The position numbers were made by a program, and so were the translations under genes. From positions 1 to 54,262 of the forward strand of contig JACQSF010000002.1 in the NCBI GenBank assembly GCA_016206085.1: a DNA stretch of 54,262 nt, written 5' to 3'. The notes under the pieces are model-generated. The model ran no database searches, was not told where the DNA came from, and worked only from the letters and a program-made list of their open reading frames with translations. Positions 13,490-46,471 of the stretch are shown here, piece by piece. Each line of letters starts with the position of its first letter. The stretch's first letter is position 1. The stretch is from Candidatus Uhrbacteria bacterium (GTDB lineage: Bacteria > Patescibacteriota > Patescibacteriia > UBA9934 > GWF2-40-263).

Positions 13490-13738
13490 ATGTTCTTTGT
13501 CTACTTGTTACAAAGCGAGGTCGATGGAACGTACTACATCGGGAGAACCAACGATGTTTCTCGTAGACTCGACGACCATAATAGTGGTCAATCTTTTTAC
13601 ACAAAGAGAAAAAGACCCTGGAGGTTGGTCTACTACGAGGCTTACGATAATGAGGATCTCGCTAAGGAGAGGGAGAAGAAATTGAAGAAGAGAGGATCCA
13701 GTTACTACGGTCTTCTTGAAAGGTTGGGAAGAAAATAA
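13490..13738 (+). CDS. Stand-alone GIY-YIG nuclease (82 aa)
   Basis: FVYLLQS...YYIGRT...RRLDDHNSG...YTK..RPWRLVYYE...AKEREKKLK. Confidence 0.92.
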   Translation: MFFVYLLQSEVDGTYYIGRTNDVSRRLDDHNSGQSFYTKRKRPWRLVYYEAYDNEDLAKEREKKLKKRGSSYYGLLERLGRK

Positions 13739-13824: not shown

Positions 13825-13856
13825 AAAAGTATCTCAAAAATTGGGATATTTTTTTT
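13825..13856 (+). terminator. Putative terminator after tRNA-Val
   Basis: AAAAGTATCTC-loop-GGGATATTTTTTTT. Confidence 0.5.
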
Positions 13857-13877
13857 GGATAAGCTCAGTTGGTTAGA

Positions 13878-13901
13878 TCCCCCCGCTCGCGAGCGGGGGG
13901 A
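13878..13901. mobile_element. 24-bp perfect palindrome TCCCCCC-GCTCGCGAGC-GGGGGGA
   Basis: Flanked by a TAGA direct repeat (13874-13877 and 13902-13905) that occurs once at this site in the intact tRNA. Confidence 0.85.
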
Positions 13902-13931
13902 TAGAGCGCTGTCCTCACACGACAGAGGTCA

Positions 13932-13955
13932 TCCCCCCTTTCGCGAAAGGGGGGA
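13932..13955. mobile_element. 24-bp perfect palindrome TCCCCCC-TTTCGCGAAA-GGGGGGA
   Basis: Flanked by a TCA direct repeat (13929-13931 and 13956-13958) that occurs once at this site in the intact tRNA. Confidence 0.85.
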
Positions 13956-14071
13956 TCAGAGGTTCGAGCCCTCTCACGCCCACCAAACCAGACGCTTCCG
14001 GGCGCCTGTTTTGTTTGTCACCGCCGTCCCTTGCCCCATGTCCATTTTCTTGATACGCTTGGAACATCTTT

Positions 14072-14677
14072 ATGTCATTACGATTTTCCCAGTTTGAAGA
14101 GAGATTGTATGACCGGTTTGGACCGGTGGGTGGCGCGGTTGCTTCCTTTTTGCTTGAGATCATCCAGATCATCCTTATCTCAAGTGCGATCATCATTCCG
14201 ATTCGTTACTTCTTGATTCAGCCGTTTTATGTAAAAGGGGCGAGCATGGAACCCAACTTTTACGACCAGGAGTACCTTATTATCGATGAATTGACCTACC
14301 GGTTTCGTGAACCGTATCGAGGAGAGATTGTTGTATTCAAGTATCCTCGCGATCCCAGTCAGTACTTCATCAAGCGTGTGATCGGGTTGCCAGGGGAGAC
14401 GGTCGAAGTCACGGGGGGAAATGTCATCATCTATAACACCGAGCATCCAAATGGGGTCGTGGTTGAAGAAGATTACTTAGACGAATCCACGACCGGCAAA
14501 GTCCGTGTGACACTCGGAGAAGATGAGTACTATGTCTTCGGAGATAATCGTGATTCATCACTGGACTCCCGGAGCTTCGGTTCTATTACTCGTGATGATG
14601 TGATCGGACGTGTGTGGGTCCGCGGTCTCCCCCTCTCTCGTATTACAACGTTTGACCTTCCCACTTACAATCTCTAA
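14072..14677 (+). CDS. lepB: Signal peptidase I
   Basis: TM helix, VKGASMEPN (Ser), RGEIVVF, FIKRVIGLPGE (Lys), GDNRDSSLDSR. Confidence 0.95.
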   Translation: MSLRFSQFEERLYDRFGPVGGAVASFLLEIIQIILISSAIIIPIRYFLIQPFYVKGASMEPNFYDQEYLIIDELTYRFREPYRGEIVVFKYPRDPSQYFIKRVIGLPGETVEVTGGNVIIYNTEHPNGVVVEEDYLDESTTGKVRVTLGEDEYYVFGDNRDSSLDSRSFGSITRDDVIGRVWVRGLPLSRITTFDLPTYNL

Positions 14678-14685
14678 TTGATCCT

Positions 14686-16107
14686 ATGCCATTCAAGAGA
14701 AAAGCTCTAGCCAAAGAACCGGCTCCAAAAAAGGTTTTGAAAGAGGAGCCTAAAAAAGATCTCGATGAGGAGGGTGAGGGAAAATCCGGGAAGACATTTG
14801 AACTGCTTCGTGGATTTCGAGACATCTTGCCGGAGGATCAGGGCAGATGGAACCTTGTGCGTGATACGATTCGTTCAATTGCCGAATCCTACAGCTTCGA
14901 TCGTATCGATCTGCCGATTTTGGAGCGTTCGGATTTGTTTCAGCGAACCATCGGCAAAGGAACCGACATCGTCGAAAAAGAGATGTACGTCTTTACGGAT
15001 CCATCCAATCGTTCTGTGGCGTTGCGTCCGGAGGCGACCGCCAGCGCGGCTCGTGCCTATATCAGCCACGGCATGATTGAGCGGCCACAGCCGGTGAAGA
15101 TGTGGTATTTAGGTCCCATGTTTCGTCACGACCGTCCGCAGGCCGGCCGTTATCGCCAGTTTTATCAGGCGGGATTTGAGAGTTTTGGTGTGGCCGAACC
15201 GATTGTGGATGCCCAACTCATCGTGATTGGTCATCAGATTTTTAAGTCGCTTGGTTTGGACGTAAAAGTTGAGATTAACTCGATTGGCACCTCCGAGTGT
15301 CGCGCCGCGTATCTTACTGAACTTGTCGCGTACTTCCGCCAGCATCGCAATAAACTTTCCGAGGATGACAAGCGGAGACTGCAGAAAAATCCCTTGCGCA
15401 TGTTGGACAGCAAGGAAGAGGTAACCCGTGAGCTACTGCAAAGTGCTCCTCAAATTCTTGATTGGTTGGATGAGACGAGCAAGGAGCACTTCATGAAGGT
15501 GCTTGAGTTTTTGGAAGAGGTGGAGGTGTCCTACCAACTCAATCCCTACTTGGTTCGCGGGCTTGACTACTACTCACACACCGTTTTTGAGTTTACGCTT
15601 CAAGAAGACGTCGGCGACTTGTCGCAAAGTGCGTTGGGTGGCGGCGGACGATATGACGGGCTTGTGGAGATTCTTGGTGGTCGGCCGACACCGGCGTGCG
15701 GATTTGCCCTGGGAATTGAACGCATCGTTCGTGCGTTGGAAGCAAAAGGCGTCAATCCACCCGAGCGTCCACCCGCCCTGGTATTTTTTGCTCAGTTGGG
15801 TGATGCGGCTCGTCGTGTGGGACTGAAGTTGTTTGAGGAGTTTCGACAAGCGGGTGTTTCCGTTGCAGAAGCGTTTGGGAAGAATGCCCTCAAAGGCCAA
15901 CTGGAGGCCGCCAATAGGATGGGGGTAAGACTCACGCTCATTTTAGGTCAAAAGGAAGTGCTCGATGGGACGATTATTATTCGTGACATGGAGTCAGGGG
16001 CGCAGGAGATTGTCGACGTAAAAAAGGTTGTGGGACTTGTGAAAAAGAAGCTCCTCCATGAGGAGGGGGTGGCTCTCCAGAGTCAGACGCCGGTTGTGGA
16101 AGCTTAA
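14686..16107 (+). CDS. hisS: Histidyl-tRNA synthetase
   Basis: RGFRD, LRPEATA, FRHDRPQAGRYRQFYQ, LVRGLDYY, GGGGRYDGL, GFALGIER. Confidence 0.97.
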   Translation: MPFKRKALAKEPAPKKVLKEEPKKDLDEEGEGKSGKTFELLRGFRDILPEDQGRWNLVRDTIRSIAESYSFDRIDLPILERSDLFQRTIGKGTDIVEKEMYVFTDPSNRSVALRPEATASAARAYISHGMIERPQPVKMWYLGPMFRHDRPQAGRYRQFYQAGFESFGVAEPIVDAQLIVIGHQIFKSLGLDVKVEINSIGTSECRAAYLTELVAYFRQHRNKLSEDDKRRLQKNPLRMLDSKEEVTRELLQSAPQILDWLDETSKEHFMKVLEFLEEVEVSYQLNPYLVRGLDYYSHTVFEFTLQEDVGDLSQSALGGGGRYDGLVEILGGRPTPACGFALGIERIVRALEAKGVNPPERPPALVFFAQLGDAARRVGLKLFEEFRQAGVSVAEAFGKNALKGQLEAANRMGVRLTLILGQKEVLDGTIIIRDMESGAQEIVDVKKVVGLVKKKLLHEEGVALQSQTPVVEA

Positions 16108-44909: not shown

Positions 44910-45608
44910 TCAGCCGGTGAGCTCGACCCAGTTGTGCTTGGGGCGCACACGTGGAGAGCCCGCGGCACACAGTGGACACTCTTCCGGCGCCCAAGTCTGG
45001 ATGTCGAAGTGGATCAGGCTCACGATGGGCGAACCTTCGAATTCGTGCGTGGGAGCACGGTGCACGAGGCAGGCCACCACCGGGGCGAACTGGACCTCGT
45101 GGTCGTGTGCCCGACGCAGTCCGTCGCGAACGGCCTGGAGCGTTCCGGTTGTGGTGACGAGCTCTTCGACCTGCAACACGACTTCGTCACGCCCGATCTC
45201 GAACCGTTTCCAGAGCTGGATCTTGTCCGAGCCCTTCTCCGTGAAGTCGTGTTGCGCACCGTTGAAGCTCGCGACCGCGAAGGACAGCGTGGCGGCGGCG
45301 TGGTCGGATCCTACGACCCAGTCGACACGCCCGCGATAGGCGTCGTCGATTTTCACGGCGAGTTGTCTTCCCAGGAGTTCGCACAGGTTCGCGTAGCGCA
45401 GCACGCGCAGAACGTCGACAAACCCGTTGCTGCAGCGACCCGAGGTGAGCTCGGCGTGCGGACGGGTCATATCGCCCGAGTGCAGCCAGAGTGCGCTGCA
45501 GGTCTCGAAGATGTGACGGATCTCCTCCGGGGTGAGCCGGCTACTCTGCGTCCGGCGGAGACGCCTCAGGGCAGCGAGGTCCATGTCGAGAATCGGTTGC
45601 TGGGTCAT
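44910..45608 (-). CDS. Type I phosphoribosyltransferase, PyrE (orotate PRTase)-like
   Basis: HAELTSGRCSNGFVD, PRPP loop VLQVEELVTTTGT, C-terminal EECPLCAAGSPRVRP; SD AAGGAG. Confidence 0.8.
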   Translation of the reverse strand: MTQQPILDMDLAALRRLRRTQSSRLTPEEIRHIFETCSALWLHSGDMTRPHAELTSGRCSNGFVDVLRVLRYANLCELLGRQLAVKIDDAYRGRVDWVVGSDHAAATLSFAVASFNGAQHDFTEKGSDKIQLWKRFEIGRDEVVLQVEELVTTTGTLQAVRDGLRRAHDHEVQFAPVVACLVHRAPTHEFEGSPIVSLIHFDIQTWAPEECPLCAAGSPRVRPKHNWVELTG

Positions 45609-45684
45609 GAATTGATCTCCTTGTGAAGAGCTAAATGCAGCCTAATCAAAAACCCGCCCCTGCACAAGTTCGGGATGGGTTTGT

Positions 45685-45933
45685 CTACTTCTGGATCAGG
45701 TGTTTTCTCATGAAGGCAATTCCAGAAGCTGTTTTTAGATATTTTTCAAATTGTGCTGCTTGCTGTTGTGATATGAAAGCAGAGTACCAGATGACTGACC
45801 AGAGTTTGAACTTTGAAGTATGTGGTACTTGTCCAGCGTTATGTTGTTCAAGTCGGTTCCGGAGGTTTGATGTCGAACCTTTATAGATTTGATTTGGGAG
45901 GTTCTTGCTTCTCAGGATGTAGACGTAGTGCAT
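45685..45933 (-). CDS. Stand-alone GIY-YIG nuclease (82 aa)
   Basis: MHYVYILRS...IYKGSTSNLRNRLEQHNAG..PHTSK...WSVIWY.AF...AAQFEKYLKTASG. Confidence 0.9.
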   Translation of the reverse strand: MHYVYILRSKNLPNQIYKGSTSNLRNRLEQHNAGQVPHTSKFKLWSVIWYSAFISQQQAAQFEKYLKTASGIAFMRKHLIQK

Positions 45934-45973
45934 ATCGAGTTGGCCTGTCTCTATATGAAGACGAGCATGGCCT

Positions 45974-46080
45974 GCCATCCGTAGCTCCAGCACAGGACAT
46001 AGTTATACGCCCTTCTTCGCTAAAGCTACGGAGGGCATCCTTCGCCCCAGCAACAAAAAATACTGCTGGAGCGAAGGATG
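45974..46080. repeat. Cluster of CCGTAGCT/CCTTCGC palindromic repeats between the tmRNA 3' end and GIY-YIG
   Basis: GCCATCCGTAGCT...AGCTACGGAGGGC and CATCCTTCGC...GCGAAGGATG hairpins; the latter overlaps the tmRNA CCA. Confidence 0.75.
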
Positions 46081-46471
46081 GTGGAGCTGGGGAGAATCGA
46101 ACTCCCGTGCGGTAAGGTTTCTCATCTTGATGTTTCCAAGCTCATTCACGCCTCATACCTCGTCACGCTCAAGGCGTGAAGCAATACATGACGAGGAACC
46201 GATCGCAACTCTTACATGTGAGAGATCGGTGACCTCACACGCGAAGCTCGATAATATAACACCCGACTGCTGGCTATCGAGCATGACCAGCGCGGATGGT
46301 TCTGACGCTTACGCGAGAACAGGGGCGAATGAAGGAACGCGCAAAGCGTTCTTGATCATTGCCATGACGTTGTTTGCAGTTGTCGTCTTGCATGGGGAAT
46401 ATTTGCGTGCGACCCATGCTCGCACGACTTGATCAAGATGGAAGAGACTCCCGTCGAAGCCTGTCAGCCCC
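46079..46471 (-). ncRNA. ssrA: tmRNA (one-piece)
   Basis: 5' GGGGCTGACAGGCTTCGAC, 3' GGGAGTTCGATTCTCCCCAGCTCCACCA (G:U Ala identity); tag ORF ANNVMAMIKNALRVPSFAPVLA*; smpB about 2 kb away. Confidence 0.95.

Follow-up and report, generated by a model that had tools for sequence, protein, structure and literature searches.

In the 54,262-nucleotide stretch of DNA from a Candidatus Uhrbacteria bacterium analyzed here (the window, which is contig C32 of an 877-kb, 83%-complete genome designated G000), the gene for transfer-messenger RNA (tmRNA), ssrA, is followed immediately by a 394-bp cassette that consists of a structured, hairpin-forming leader and a gene for an 82-amino-acid (aa) GIY-YIG nuclease. 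As judged from alleles of the site in related genomes, the cassette is a unit that entered the 3' boundary of ssrA by seamless insertion. Leader and gene in this combination also begin immediately behind the CCA of other tmRNA genes and of genes for no fewer than 16 tRNA types, both in the order to which G000 belongs and in many phyla. We favor the interpretation, at a probability of roughly 0.6, that the cassette is a selfish element which depends on its hairpins and homes to the 3' ends of stable-RNA genes, by a mechanism that we infer below. A palindrome-plus-nuclease cassette at stable-RNA 3' ends had been proposed in an earlier reading of the window (the original prediction), and this description is borne out by the allele series at ssrA and by the recurrence of the cassette at tRNA and tmRNA genes across phyla. 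The accompanying statement that the cassette targets such ends holds as a description of where insertions are seen in genome sequences, and in that sense only.

The tmRNA gene lies on the minus strand (46079-46471; ARAGORN, and Rfam RF00023 with 116 bits) and ends in ...CAGCTCCACCA at 46079, and the cassette (46078-45685) fills exactly the interval between the ssrA-encoded CCA and the ssrA terminator. These limits follow from the comparison of three alleles, two of which (L200 and L201) were found by scanning metagenome contigs with the 23-nucleotide (nt) 3' end of the G000 tmRNA; the genomes of the G000 lineage are all metagenome bins. In L201, whose tmRNA is 82% identical to that of G000, the site is empty with the same flanks. 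The sequence there is cca/ACAAAAACATCCGTGACAAATACGGATGTTTTTGTT (slashes mark junctions), the CCA being joined to ACAAAAAC...terminator without an insert, and a pyrE-like gene follows whose product has 67% amino-acid identity to that of the G000 gene at 44910-45608. L200, with a tmRNA that is 85% identical to that of G000 and 92% identical to that of L201, has a 113-nt insert before the terminator which represents a leader without the gene. The insert is placed as cca/GCCGTCGC...GGCTGGCAGGCCA/ACAAAAAC, the unit ends in CAGGCCA, and the terminator is nearly identical to that of L201. G000 has the filled site, cca/145-nt leader/ATG...TAG/ACAAACCC...TTTTTGATT. The top of the first leader helix (CAGCAGTATyTyTTGTTGCTG) is common to L200 and G000 and different in every other copy examined, and the half-sites of these two leaders differ from each other with compensating changes. 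Comparison of ssrA 3' flanks for empty sites had been suggested in the original prediction, and besides L201 such sites are present in six genomes of the same genus (G002-G007), where a plain terminator alone follows the tmRNA CCA. No cassette-type gene was found behind ssrA in any of these six genomes, the only nearby gene match in G006 being about 3.6 kb from ssrA on the other strand. In G001, the first 29 nt after the CCA are as in G000 and the contig then ends. The contrary case envisaged at the outset was fixation of the gene at this locus throughout the lineage in the absence of the palindromes; what is found is that six of the seven same-genus genomes are cassette-free and that the palindromes always accompany the gene.

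The leader (45934-46078, minus strand, 145 nt) is recognized from its fold z-score, its repeat arms (I1-I5) and the occurrence of the same design elsewhere. Its first helix, H1 (X:X'; 46036-46080, minus strand), is indicated by arm complementarity and by covariation across copies and is formed by CATCCTTCGCTCCAGCAGTAT (46080-46060) and TTGTTGCTGGGGCGAAGGATG (46056-46036), arms of 21 nt each that make 20 pairs with a single mismatch. The last two bases of the tmRNA (CA, 46080-46079) close this helix by pairing with the final TG, in agreement with the prediction that the CCACCA end runs straight into a hairpin which uses the CA of the CCA. The hairpin pair that was expected to follow corresponds to hairpin H2 (GCCCTCCGTAGC-TTTA-GCGAAGAAGGGC; 46009-46036, minus strand), identified from its conserved core and from covariation in its lower stem, together with a long-range pair, CCGTAGCT...AGCTACGG, whose arms (46019-46037 and 45973-45991) are 84% complementary. 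The Y' arm and its tail (GCTGGAGCTACGGATGG-CAGGCCA; 45968-45991, minus strand) are defined by the repeat pairs I1 and I2, through which Y' is complementary not only to the Y arm CCCTCCGTAGC but also to the arm that comes first behind the CCA, and by the boundary of the L200 insert. The 161-nt leader fold has a predicted energy of -81.5 kcal/mol compared with -49.3 +/- 4.3 for shuffled sequences (z = -7.5), which was matched by none of 200 shuffles. Between the leader modules and the start codon is a spacer (45934-45967, minus strand, from sequence inspection) which contains a second CAGGCCA (GAGACAGGCCAAC) that may be a remnant of another Y' module, and in which no clear Shine-Dalgarno sequence was seen. 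A promoter scan found no sigma-70-like site between 46079 and 45933, consistent with the original prediction that no obvious promoter separates the tmRNA from the nuclease gene. Searches with Rfam 15 gave chance-level microRNA matches only for the G000 leader, and no Rfam family covered the leader at 10 loci from other phyla.

Leaders of this kind are built from half-sites of about 11-17 nt, X (CCA)TCCTTCGC and Y, plus their complements, in alternating orientation. Across copies, the consensus for X is CCnTCCTTCGC and that for Y is CCnTCCGTAGC. For the X arm there are two possible partners, X' with perfect and Y' with imperfect pairing, and H2 arises from imperfect pairing between Y and an X'-like arm. 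In all copies the first helix is closed by CA:TG, the CA being the end of the host RNA gene, and the position after the CA covaries (CATCC:GGATG, CATTC:GAATG, CAGCC:GGCTG, CACCC:GGGTG and CAAAC:GTTTG). H2 is imperfect, with a conserved core in which CG(T/A)AGC faces GCGAAG with G.A and A.G mismatches. In the H2 lower stem, 44 copies have on average 6.18 of 7 possible pairs versus 4.84 with shuffled partners (maximum of 5.32 in 1000 shuffles); these are the copies, among 110 leaders, that matched a strict H2 pattern, and their number is not a measure of the true frequency of H2. Judging from these substitution patterns, the leader helices are kept by compensatory changes. The solo hairpin X:Y' on the sense strand is of the H2 type of the opposite strand, so that the leader carries two like hairpins in inverted orientation. 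Units found alone end in ...TGG-CAGGCCA, that is, again in CCA, and the CAGGCCA tail of the Y' arm marks the 3' end of leader-only units. Where CCA is not encoded, as in tmRNA genes of Verrucomicrobiota and Planctomycetota (...GCCTCCA/), the cassette begins right after the discriminator base. Mimicry of the tmRNA end by the repeat arms (AGCTCCAGCA compared with AGCTCCACCA) was considered and set aside, the resemblance being weak in G038.

The nuclease gene (45685-45933, minus strand) has an intact frame of 82 codons that starts with ATG at 45933 and ends with TAG at 45685-45687, and the gene product was assigned to the Slx1/UPF0213 type from Pfam PF01541, alignments, AlphaFold2 and Foldseek. 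The presence of an 82-aa GIY-YIG gene downstream of the palindromes, as originally predicted, is supported by a Pfam match over residues 1-70 with 58.5 bits (cut-off 22.6; E = 9e-16). The protein has the core residues Y5, Y17, R27, H31, N32 and E63. In a gap-free alignment of 42 sequences from many phyla, with a mean column identity of 62%, these residues are invariant with the exception of H31, which is nearly so, and a C-terminal FEKYLKxxSG motif is mostly invariant (F62, E63, Y65, L66, K67, S70 and G71). An AlphaFold2 model (pLDDT 95.6) has the order strand, strand, helix, strand, helix, helix. The top Foldseek matches in the PDB are to the Slx1 nuclease domain (query TM-score of 0.67-0.75, 29-34% identity), with further matches to At-HIGLE and to the UPF0213 protein BH0048, and a sequence search again gave the Slx1 and UPF0213 families, at a weak E of 0.03-0.04. 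The 82 residues comprise the GIY-YIG domain alone, as a second domain (DNA-binding, RING or zinc-finger) is absent. From its sequence and predicted structure, the protein is a bare nuclease domain of the Slx1/UPF0213 type. Proteins of this type (PDB 6seh, 6sei and 1zg2) are its best matches in both structure and sequence and have the same GIY-YIG core residues, and by analogy the ability of Slx1 to cut branched DNA would be consistent with a hairpin-rich site. Slx1 uses a RING/zinc-finger domain with its partner Slx4, however, whereas the cassette protein lacks such a domain. We know of no linkage to tRNA 3' ends, and no mobility, for Slx1 or UPF0213 proteins. A role in defense was rejected since the sole PADLOC match, PDC-S57 (E = 0.003, 15 bits), is too weak, and PHROGs gave only a weak match to a family of unknown function.

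Homologues of the gene are present in 109 of 161 genomes of the order, with up to 8 per genome. Among the 30 closest homologues, 26 have a co-oriented tRNA or tmRNA gene 82-271 nt upstream (tmRNA in 6 cases, and otherwise tRNA genes for Tyr, Ala, Ile, Val, Leu, Ser, Glu and Asp), and 2 more are cut by contig ends. Behind the tmRNA CCA, intact leader and gene occur in G033, G049, G016, G152 and G137, and in G157 the gene lies behind a tmRNA that scores just below the Rfam cut-off. Pseudogenes with stops or frameshifts are linked to ssrA in G029 and G038 and to tRNA-Ile in G046. G034 has a cassette reduced to its first 15 nt and last ~20 nt, G009 and G078 have hairpins alone behind ssrA, and leader-only copies are found at L044, L060, L062 and L200. 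In G024, ssrA is followed by a gene of a different GIY-YIG clade with different palindromes. The Y'-tail pattern GCTWCGRATGGCRGGCCA occurs in 41 of the 161 genomes (0 for the reversed control), and of these 41 genomes 36 also have a gene homologue, according to a tally of two tables. Of 30 sampled loci with the motif, 24 have a tRNA or tmRNA gene 13-110 nt upstream in the same orientation; CCA/NCCTTCGC is the junction every time, and the majority of the copies consist of a hairpin alone, with no gene. G000 has only one such leader in its genome. Taken together, these forms suggest that copies are gained and then decay, by way of pseudogenes, leader-only units ending in ...TGGCAGGCCA and solo hairpins, until they are lost.

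Several individual copies in the order have unusual arrangements. At L164 cassettes are in tandem, a second GIY-YIG gene ending just before the next leader; at L084 the entire leader is duplicated, and L073 has a repeat of the Y'-CAGGCCA module. Two full-length tmRNA genes, one of them bearing the cassette, are present on different contigs of G016 (C84:3225-3697 and C41:16081-16487), and the tmRNA gene of G033 (C3:27946-28494) is 549 nt long compared with the usual ~390 nt. At L041 (G041:C18:259-276), a solo hairpin, CCATCCTCCGCCAAGGCTTCGGATGGCAGGCCG, lies in frame within an open reading frame (ORF) resembling an aminoacyl-tRNA synthetase gene, where it is read as ...GWPSSAKASDGRPSDF....

Outside the order, more than 575 relatives were obtained when one genome per species was scanned with the clade alignment and one peptide pattern, and of these the best-scoring 80 loci were examined. 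These 80 come from Saccharibacteria, Gracilibacteria, Peregrinibacteria, Acidobacteriota, Verrucomicrobiota, Planctomycetota, Nitrospiraceae, Omnitrophica and others, as well as from Alphaproteobacteria (including three Rhizobium species and Reyranella soli) and Geomonas paludis, and the leader design is identical in kind across these phyla. At 59 of the 80 loci, ARAGORN and Rfam identified a co-oriented tRNA or tmRNA gene immediately upstream (tmRNA at 17), and several of the remaining 21 have an unrecognized tRNA- or tmRNA-like 3' end ahead of the junction. When 80 host-gene ends were pooled from the order and the cross-phyla sets, 74 ended in CCA, 42 in CCACCA and 28 in TCCACCA, as against 10 and 2 of the 36 tRNA genes of G000 itself for CCACCA and TCCACCA, respectively. 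tmRNA (18) and tRNA-Ala (15) make up 41% of the 80 host sites. By these counts of gene ends, TCCACCA ends, those of tmRNA and tRNA-Ala, are favored as targets. The two RNAs share an Ala-type acceptor end, tmRNA being charged by alanyl-tRNA synthetase.

Inheritance of the gene, to judge from an IQ-TREE tree of 36 proteins over 82 columns, is non-vertical, as the protein tree follows neither host nor site. Linkage to tmRNA arose at least three separate times on well-supported branches, host families are mixed, and the tree has six changes between tmRNA and tRNA sites overall. The nearest relative of the G000 protein is encoded by the ssrA-linked pseudogene of G038, from another family (67% identity). 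Next is the G051 copy (63%), which is located just upstream of tRNA-Phe and behind the 3' end of a tRNA gene that is truncated by the start of the contig. Histidyl-tRNA synthetase (HisRS) identities to G000 are 60% for G038, 80% for G051 and 77% for G058, the GIY-YIG protein of G058 being 51% identical to that of G000. The HisRS of G004 is 92% identical to that of G000, yet the same-genus genomes have no orthologue of the nuclease gene at ssrA.

In the mechanism that we propose for a selfish element, the nuclease gene would be read through from the ssrA promoter. The nuclease, having no DNA-binding domain, would recognize the imperfect hairpins, probably as extruded or single-stranded DNA (ssDNA) at heavily transcribed genes, a mode of recognition that appears most likely because of the likeness to Slx1 and the precedent of Ssn (see below). 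It would nick at or near the ...CCA junction, and host repair or recombination would then copy the cassette into the nicked junction, with TCCACCA ends as the preferred insertion targets. A wider proposal, which we put forward tentatively and at rather less than even odds, is that the cassette belongs to an undescribed class of minimal mobile elements spread across bacterial phyla, in which a bare Slx1-like nuclease of 80 aa would be aimed by its own CCA-pairing hairpins and inserted seamlessly. The same tentative proposal has these elements also mobilizing non-coding CCA/...CAGGCCA/ units with a preference for TCCACCA ends, and has the target set by nucleic-acid structure or base pairing instead of by a protein that reads sequence.

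The closest parallel for spread by cutting is the Seg family, free-standing GIY-YIG homing endonucleases of T-even phages which possess a C-terminal DNA-binding module. Like the seg genes, the cassette gene is a small GIY-YIG gene located between genes rather than in an intron, is linked to tRNA genes and is present or absent among relatives, and by analogy it may spread after its nuclease cuts the allele that lacks it, as is presumed for Seg. The cassette protein differs in having no C-terminal DNA-binding module, and the Seg genes are phage genes that have neither a CCA-anchored hairpin leader nor non-coding leader-only derivatives. One of them, SegB, is encoded by a free-standing gene in the tRNA gene cluster of T4 (PMC13096335).

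Several points weigh against a selfish, homing cassette. The gene lies outside the CCA/...CCA/ unit that moves alone in L200, and a hydrolytic GIY-YIG domain by itself cannot join DNA. Searches with tblastn found no match to the gene in 50,697 phage records or in a plasmid collection, so that there is no known vector. Conservation across phyla, at 62% mean column identity, is unusually high for a selfish gene, and in three Rhizobium species the cassette is at the same tRNA-Ala(ggc), which fits a host function as well. The tree of 82 columns has many unsupported branches and supports the conclusion that the tmRNA-linked copies are not one clade, not a detailed history. Strict co-orientation and the exact start at the RNA 3' end suit a role at the level of RNA equally. 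In addition, a survey from 2006 reported that prokaryotic Slx1-like GIY-YIG genes are fused to TrmH or occur in operons with COG4123 methyltransferases, and suggested a link of those genes to RNA metabolism (PMC1564403).

The main rival explanation, which we regard as unlikely, is a role at the level of RNA. Under it, the cassette would be a host module in which the leader serves as a 3' trailer and 5' untranslated region within an ssrA read-through transcript and steers or shields CCA processing, or stabilizes and regulates the mRNA downstream. The substrates of the protein would be precursors of tRNA or tmRNA, or the RNA of its own leader, and solo hairpins would be further substrates. That the cassette and the RNA gene are always co-oriented, and that the cassette begins precisely at the encoded 3' end of this gene, whether CCA or discriminator base, fits such a role, as do the leader without a promoter-like site, the alternative pairing of X with X' or Y', which resembles a structural switch, and the purine-rich internal loop of the GUA/GAA type in H2 on the sense strand. 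The high conservation of the family across phyla and the TrmH fusions and methyltransferase operons of Slx1-like genes (PMC1564403) point the same way. A host module of this sort is harder to reconcile with the patchy occurrence of the cassette among close relatives, the frequent pseudogenes and the several copies in some genomes. In G000, with its one leader, the protein would serve a single transcript, and the in-frame hairpin of L041 in a protein-coding gene is a DNA insertion event. The nearest structural matches are DNA structure-specific nucleases, and SsnA, the only characterized single-domain relative tested, neither binds nor cuts RNA (PMC11893778).

Alternatively, the protein could be a site-specific ssDNA nuclease of the Ssn kind, with cognate hairpins beside its gene and scattered elsewhere, that modulates transformation or recombination and does not spread itself. 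This explanation is close to the selfish element that we favor, the main difference being whether the nuclease is responsible for its own spread, and we consider it improbable, more so than an RNA-level module. SsnA of Neisseria meningitidis, a single-domain GIY-YIG protein of 94 aa, cuts ssDNA next to the hairpin repeats (NTS/SRM) that flank ssnA (PMC11893778). The bare GIY-YIG gene described here likewise adjoins its own hairpin family, which is dispersed as solo copies in 41 of the 161 genomes of the order, 36 of them with a gene homologue. Both systems thus pair a single-domain GIY-YIG protein of about 80-95 aa with a dispersed hairpin family, and recognition of structured nucleic acid is likely in the cassette by analogy. 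The repeats themselves differ, as the SRM is absent from both strands of 45500-46200 and has one match in the whole 877-kb genome, and those of the cassette lie only 5' of the gene and nearly all at the CCA ends of tRNA and tmRNA genes, whereas tRNA is not mentioned in the Ssn paper (PMC11893778). The closest solved relatives of the cassette protein are moreover Slx1 and UPF0213 proteins. An Ssn-like nuclease also leaves the empty and filled alleles and the seamless boundaries unexplained, whereas these alleles indicate insertion of a whole module.

The remaining possibility, hairpins of the repetitive extragenic palindromic (REP) or miniature inverted-repeat transposable element type moved by another enzyme such as a Y1 transposase, or an integrase hot spot, with the GIY-YIG gene as a passive passenger, is very improbable: the genome does have two PF01797 genes (C27:47140-47463, minus strand, and C28:36658-36975, plus strand), the hairpins have a GTAG core like REP elements, and integration into the 3' ends of ssrA and tRNA genes is well known, but the association of leader and GIY-YIG gene persists across phyla whatever else the genome carries, mobilization by the Y1 transposases of the IS200 or REP-associated tyrosine transposase (RAYT) type is unlikely because the GGGGTCAGG repeats that flank their genes are unrelated to the cassette, and an integrase island was rejected since the 394-bp insert has one ORF, no integrase gene, no attachment (att)-type repeat and no duplication of the RNA 3' end beyond the CCA, its neighbors being a pyrE-like gene and an ORF without a Pfam match. 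Transposition in the IS200/IS605 and REP/RAYT systems is single-stranded and guided by hairpins. The cassette shares with these systems imperfect hairpins with conserved mismatches, short non-coding derivatives and seamless insertion on the 3' side of a short constant sequence (...CCA in the present case, in which the cassette unit also ends). It differs from them in that its enzyme is a hydrolytic GIY-YIG protein and not an HUH Y1 transposase, its structured parts are all at one end, and the gene is outside the minimal unit. Tyrosine integrases insert genomic islands at the 3' ends of tmRNA and tRNA genes, the same class of target site, whereas the junction of the cassette is located exactly after the CCA and only the CCA is repeated.

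Downstream of the cassette is a terminator-like hairpin with a T-run (ACAAACCC...GGGTTTTTGATT; 45644-45684, minus strand), which was assigned from its position and form in relatives and has a weak fold. The terminator that the original prediction placed after the gene thus has the right shape, but it was not called by a terminator scan and its fold is weak (z = -0.84). It matches in position and form the cca/ACAAAAA...TTTTTG(A)TT of G002, G004, L200 and L201 and is, from this comparison, probably the original ssrA terminator pushed away by the insert and outside the cassette. The 232-aa gene that follows (44910-45608, minus strand) matched orotate phosphoribosyltransferase models only below their cut-offs (TIGR01367, 74 bits versus a cut-off of 150) and has no Pfam match. 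It adjoins ssrA in L200 as well as L201 and is a native neighbor in the G000 sub-lineage, as L201 has it beside an empty site. A candidate insert of about 2 kb, present between ssrA and a conserved convergent gene in G000 and missing from G002 and G004, was discarded for this reason.

G000 has other small GIY-YIG genes. One of them (13490-13738) is linked to tRNA-Val, and the original prediction regarded it and the ssrA-linked nuclease as independent arrivals of one element type. The proteins do have the same length, 82 aa, and are divergent (32% identity), as had been noted, but the tRNA-Val-linked gene sits 5' of the tRNA, belongs to another GIY-YIG clade and is without a CCA-anchored leader, and its product falls with the outgroup rows of the protein tree; it is not the same element type. 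In this region, the intact tRNA-Val(cac) gene has behind it a second copy that is truncated at the 5' end (13855-13990, plus strand) and split by two perfect palindromes of 24 nt, TCCCCCCGCTCGCGAGCGGGGGGA and TCCCCCCTTTCGCGAAAGGGGGGA. TAGA and TCA are present in duplicate where the palindromes were inserted, and ARAGORN mistakes the region for a permuted tmRNA (13890-14694). The third small GIY-YIG gene (C19:24300-25100, minus strand; 93 aa, 38% identical) is about 170 nt behind tRNA-Ser(cga). At that locus too, the CA of the CCA closes the first hairpin, CACGTAAAAACACC...GGTGTTTTTACGTG, and the ...TGG-CAGGCCA tail known from the ssrA cassette is echoed by the sequences ACGTGG-CAAGCCA and ACGTGG-TAAGCCA. 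The fourth gene (C7:6380-6760, plus strand; 96 aa) is of a different clade, lies away from tRNA genes and is bracketed by inverted repeats of ~35 nt (TGTGTCATTGCGAGGAG...CTCCTCGCAATGACACA) in a layout that recalls the repeat-gene-repeat arrangement of Ssn. The Y1 transposase genes of G000 (PF01797, IS200/RAYT-like) are flanked by GGGGTCAGG-type repeats, which indicates that candidate mobilizers exist for at least one palindrome family of this genome.

Full-text searching of the literature gave no paper that links GIY-YIG genes to the 3' ends of tRNA, tmRNA or ssrA genes, and as far as we could find the cassette has neither a published description nor an Rfam family. Small genes annotated as encoding a 'GIY-YIG nuclease family protein' are widespread and their role is unexplained, and one large clade of them is now linked to a precise position, the final base of tRNA and tmRNA genes, and to a structured leader that is conserved. 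Since carriers include cultured Rhizobium and Geomonas, experiments are feasible. If the cassette is a host module, it would point to an unrecognized step by which the 3' ends of tRNA and tmRNA are matured or checked for quality. If it is mobile, it would be among the smallest self-contained mobile units, would represent a new mode of target choice, and may provide compact structure-guided nucleases.

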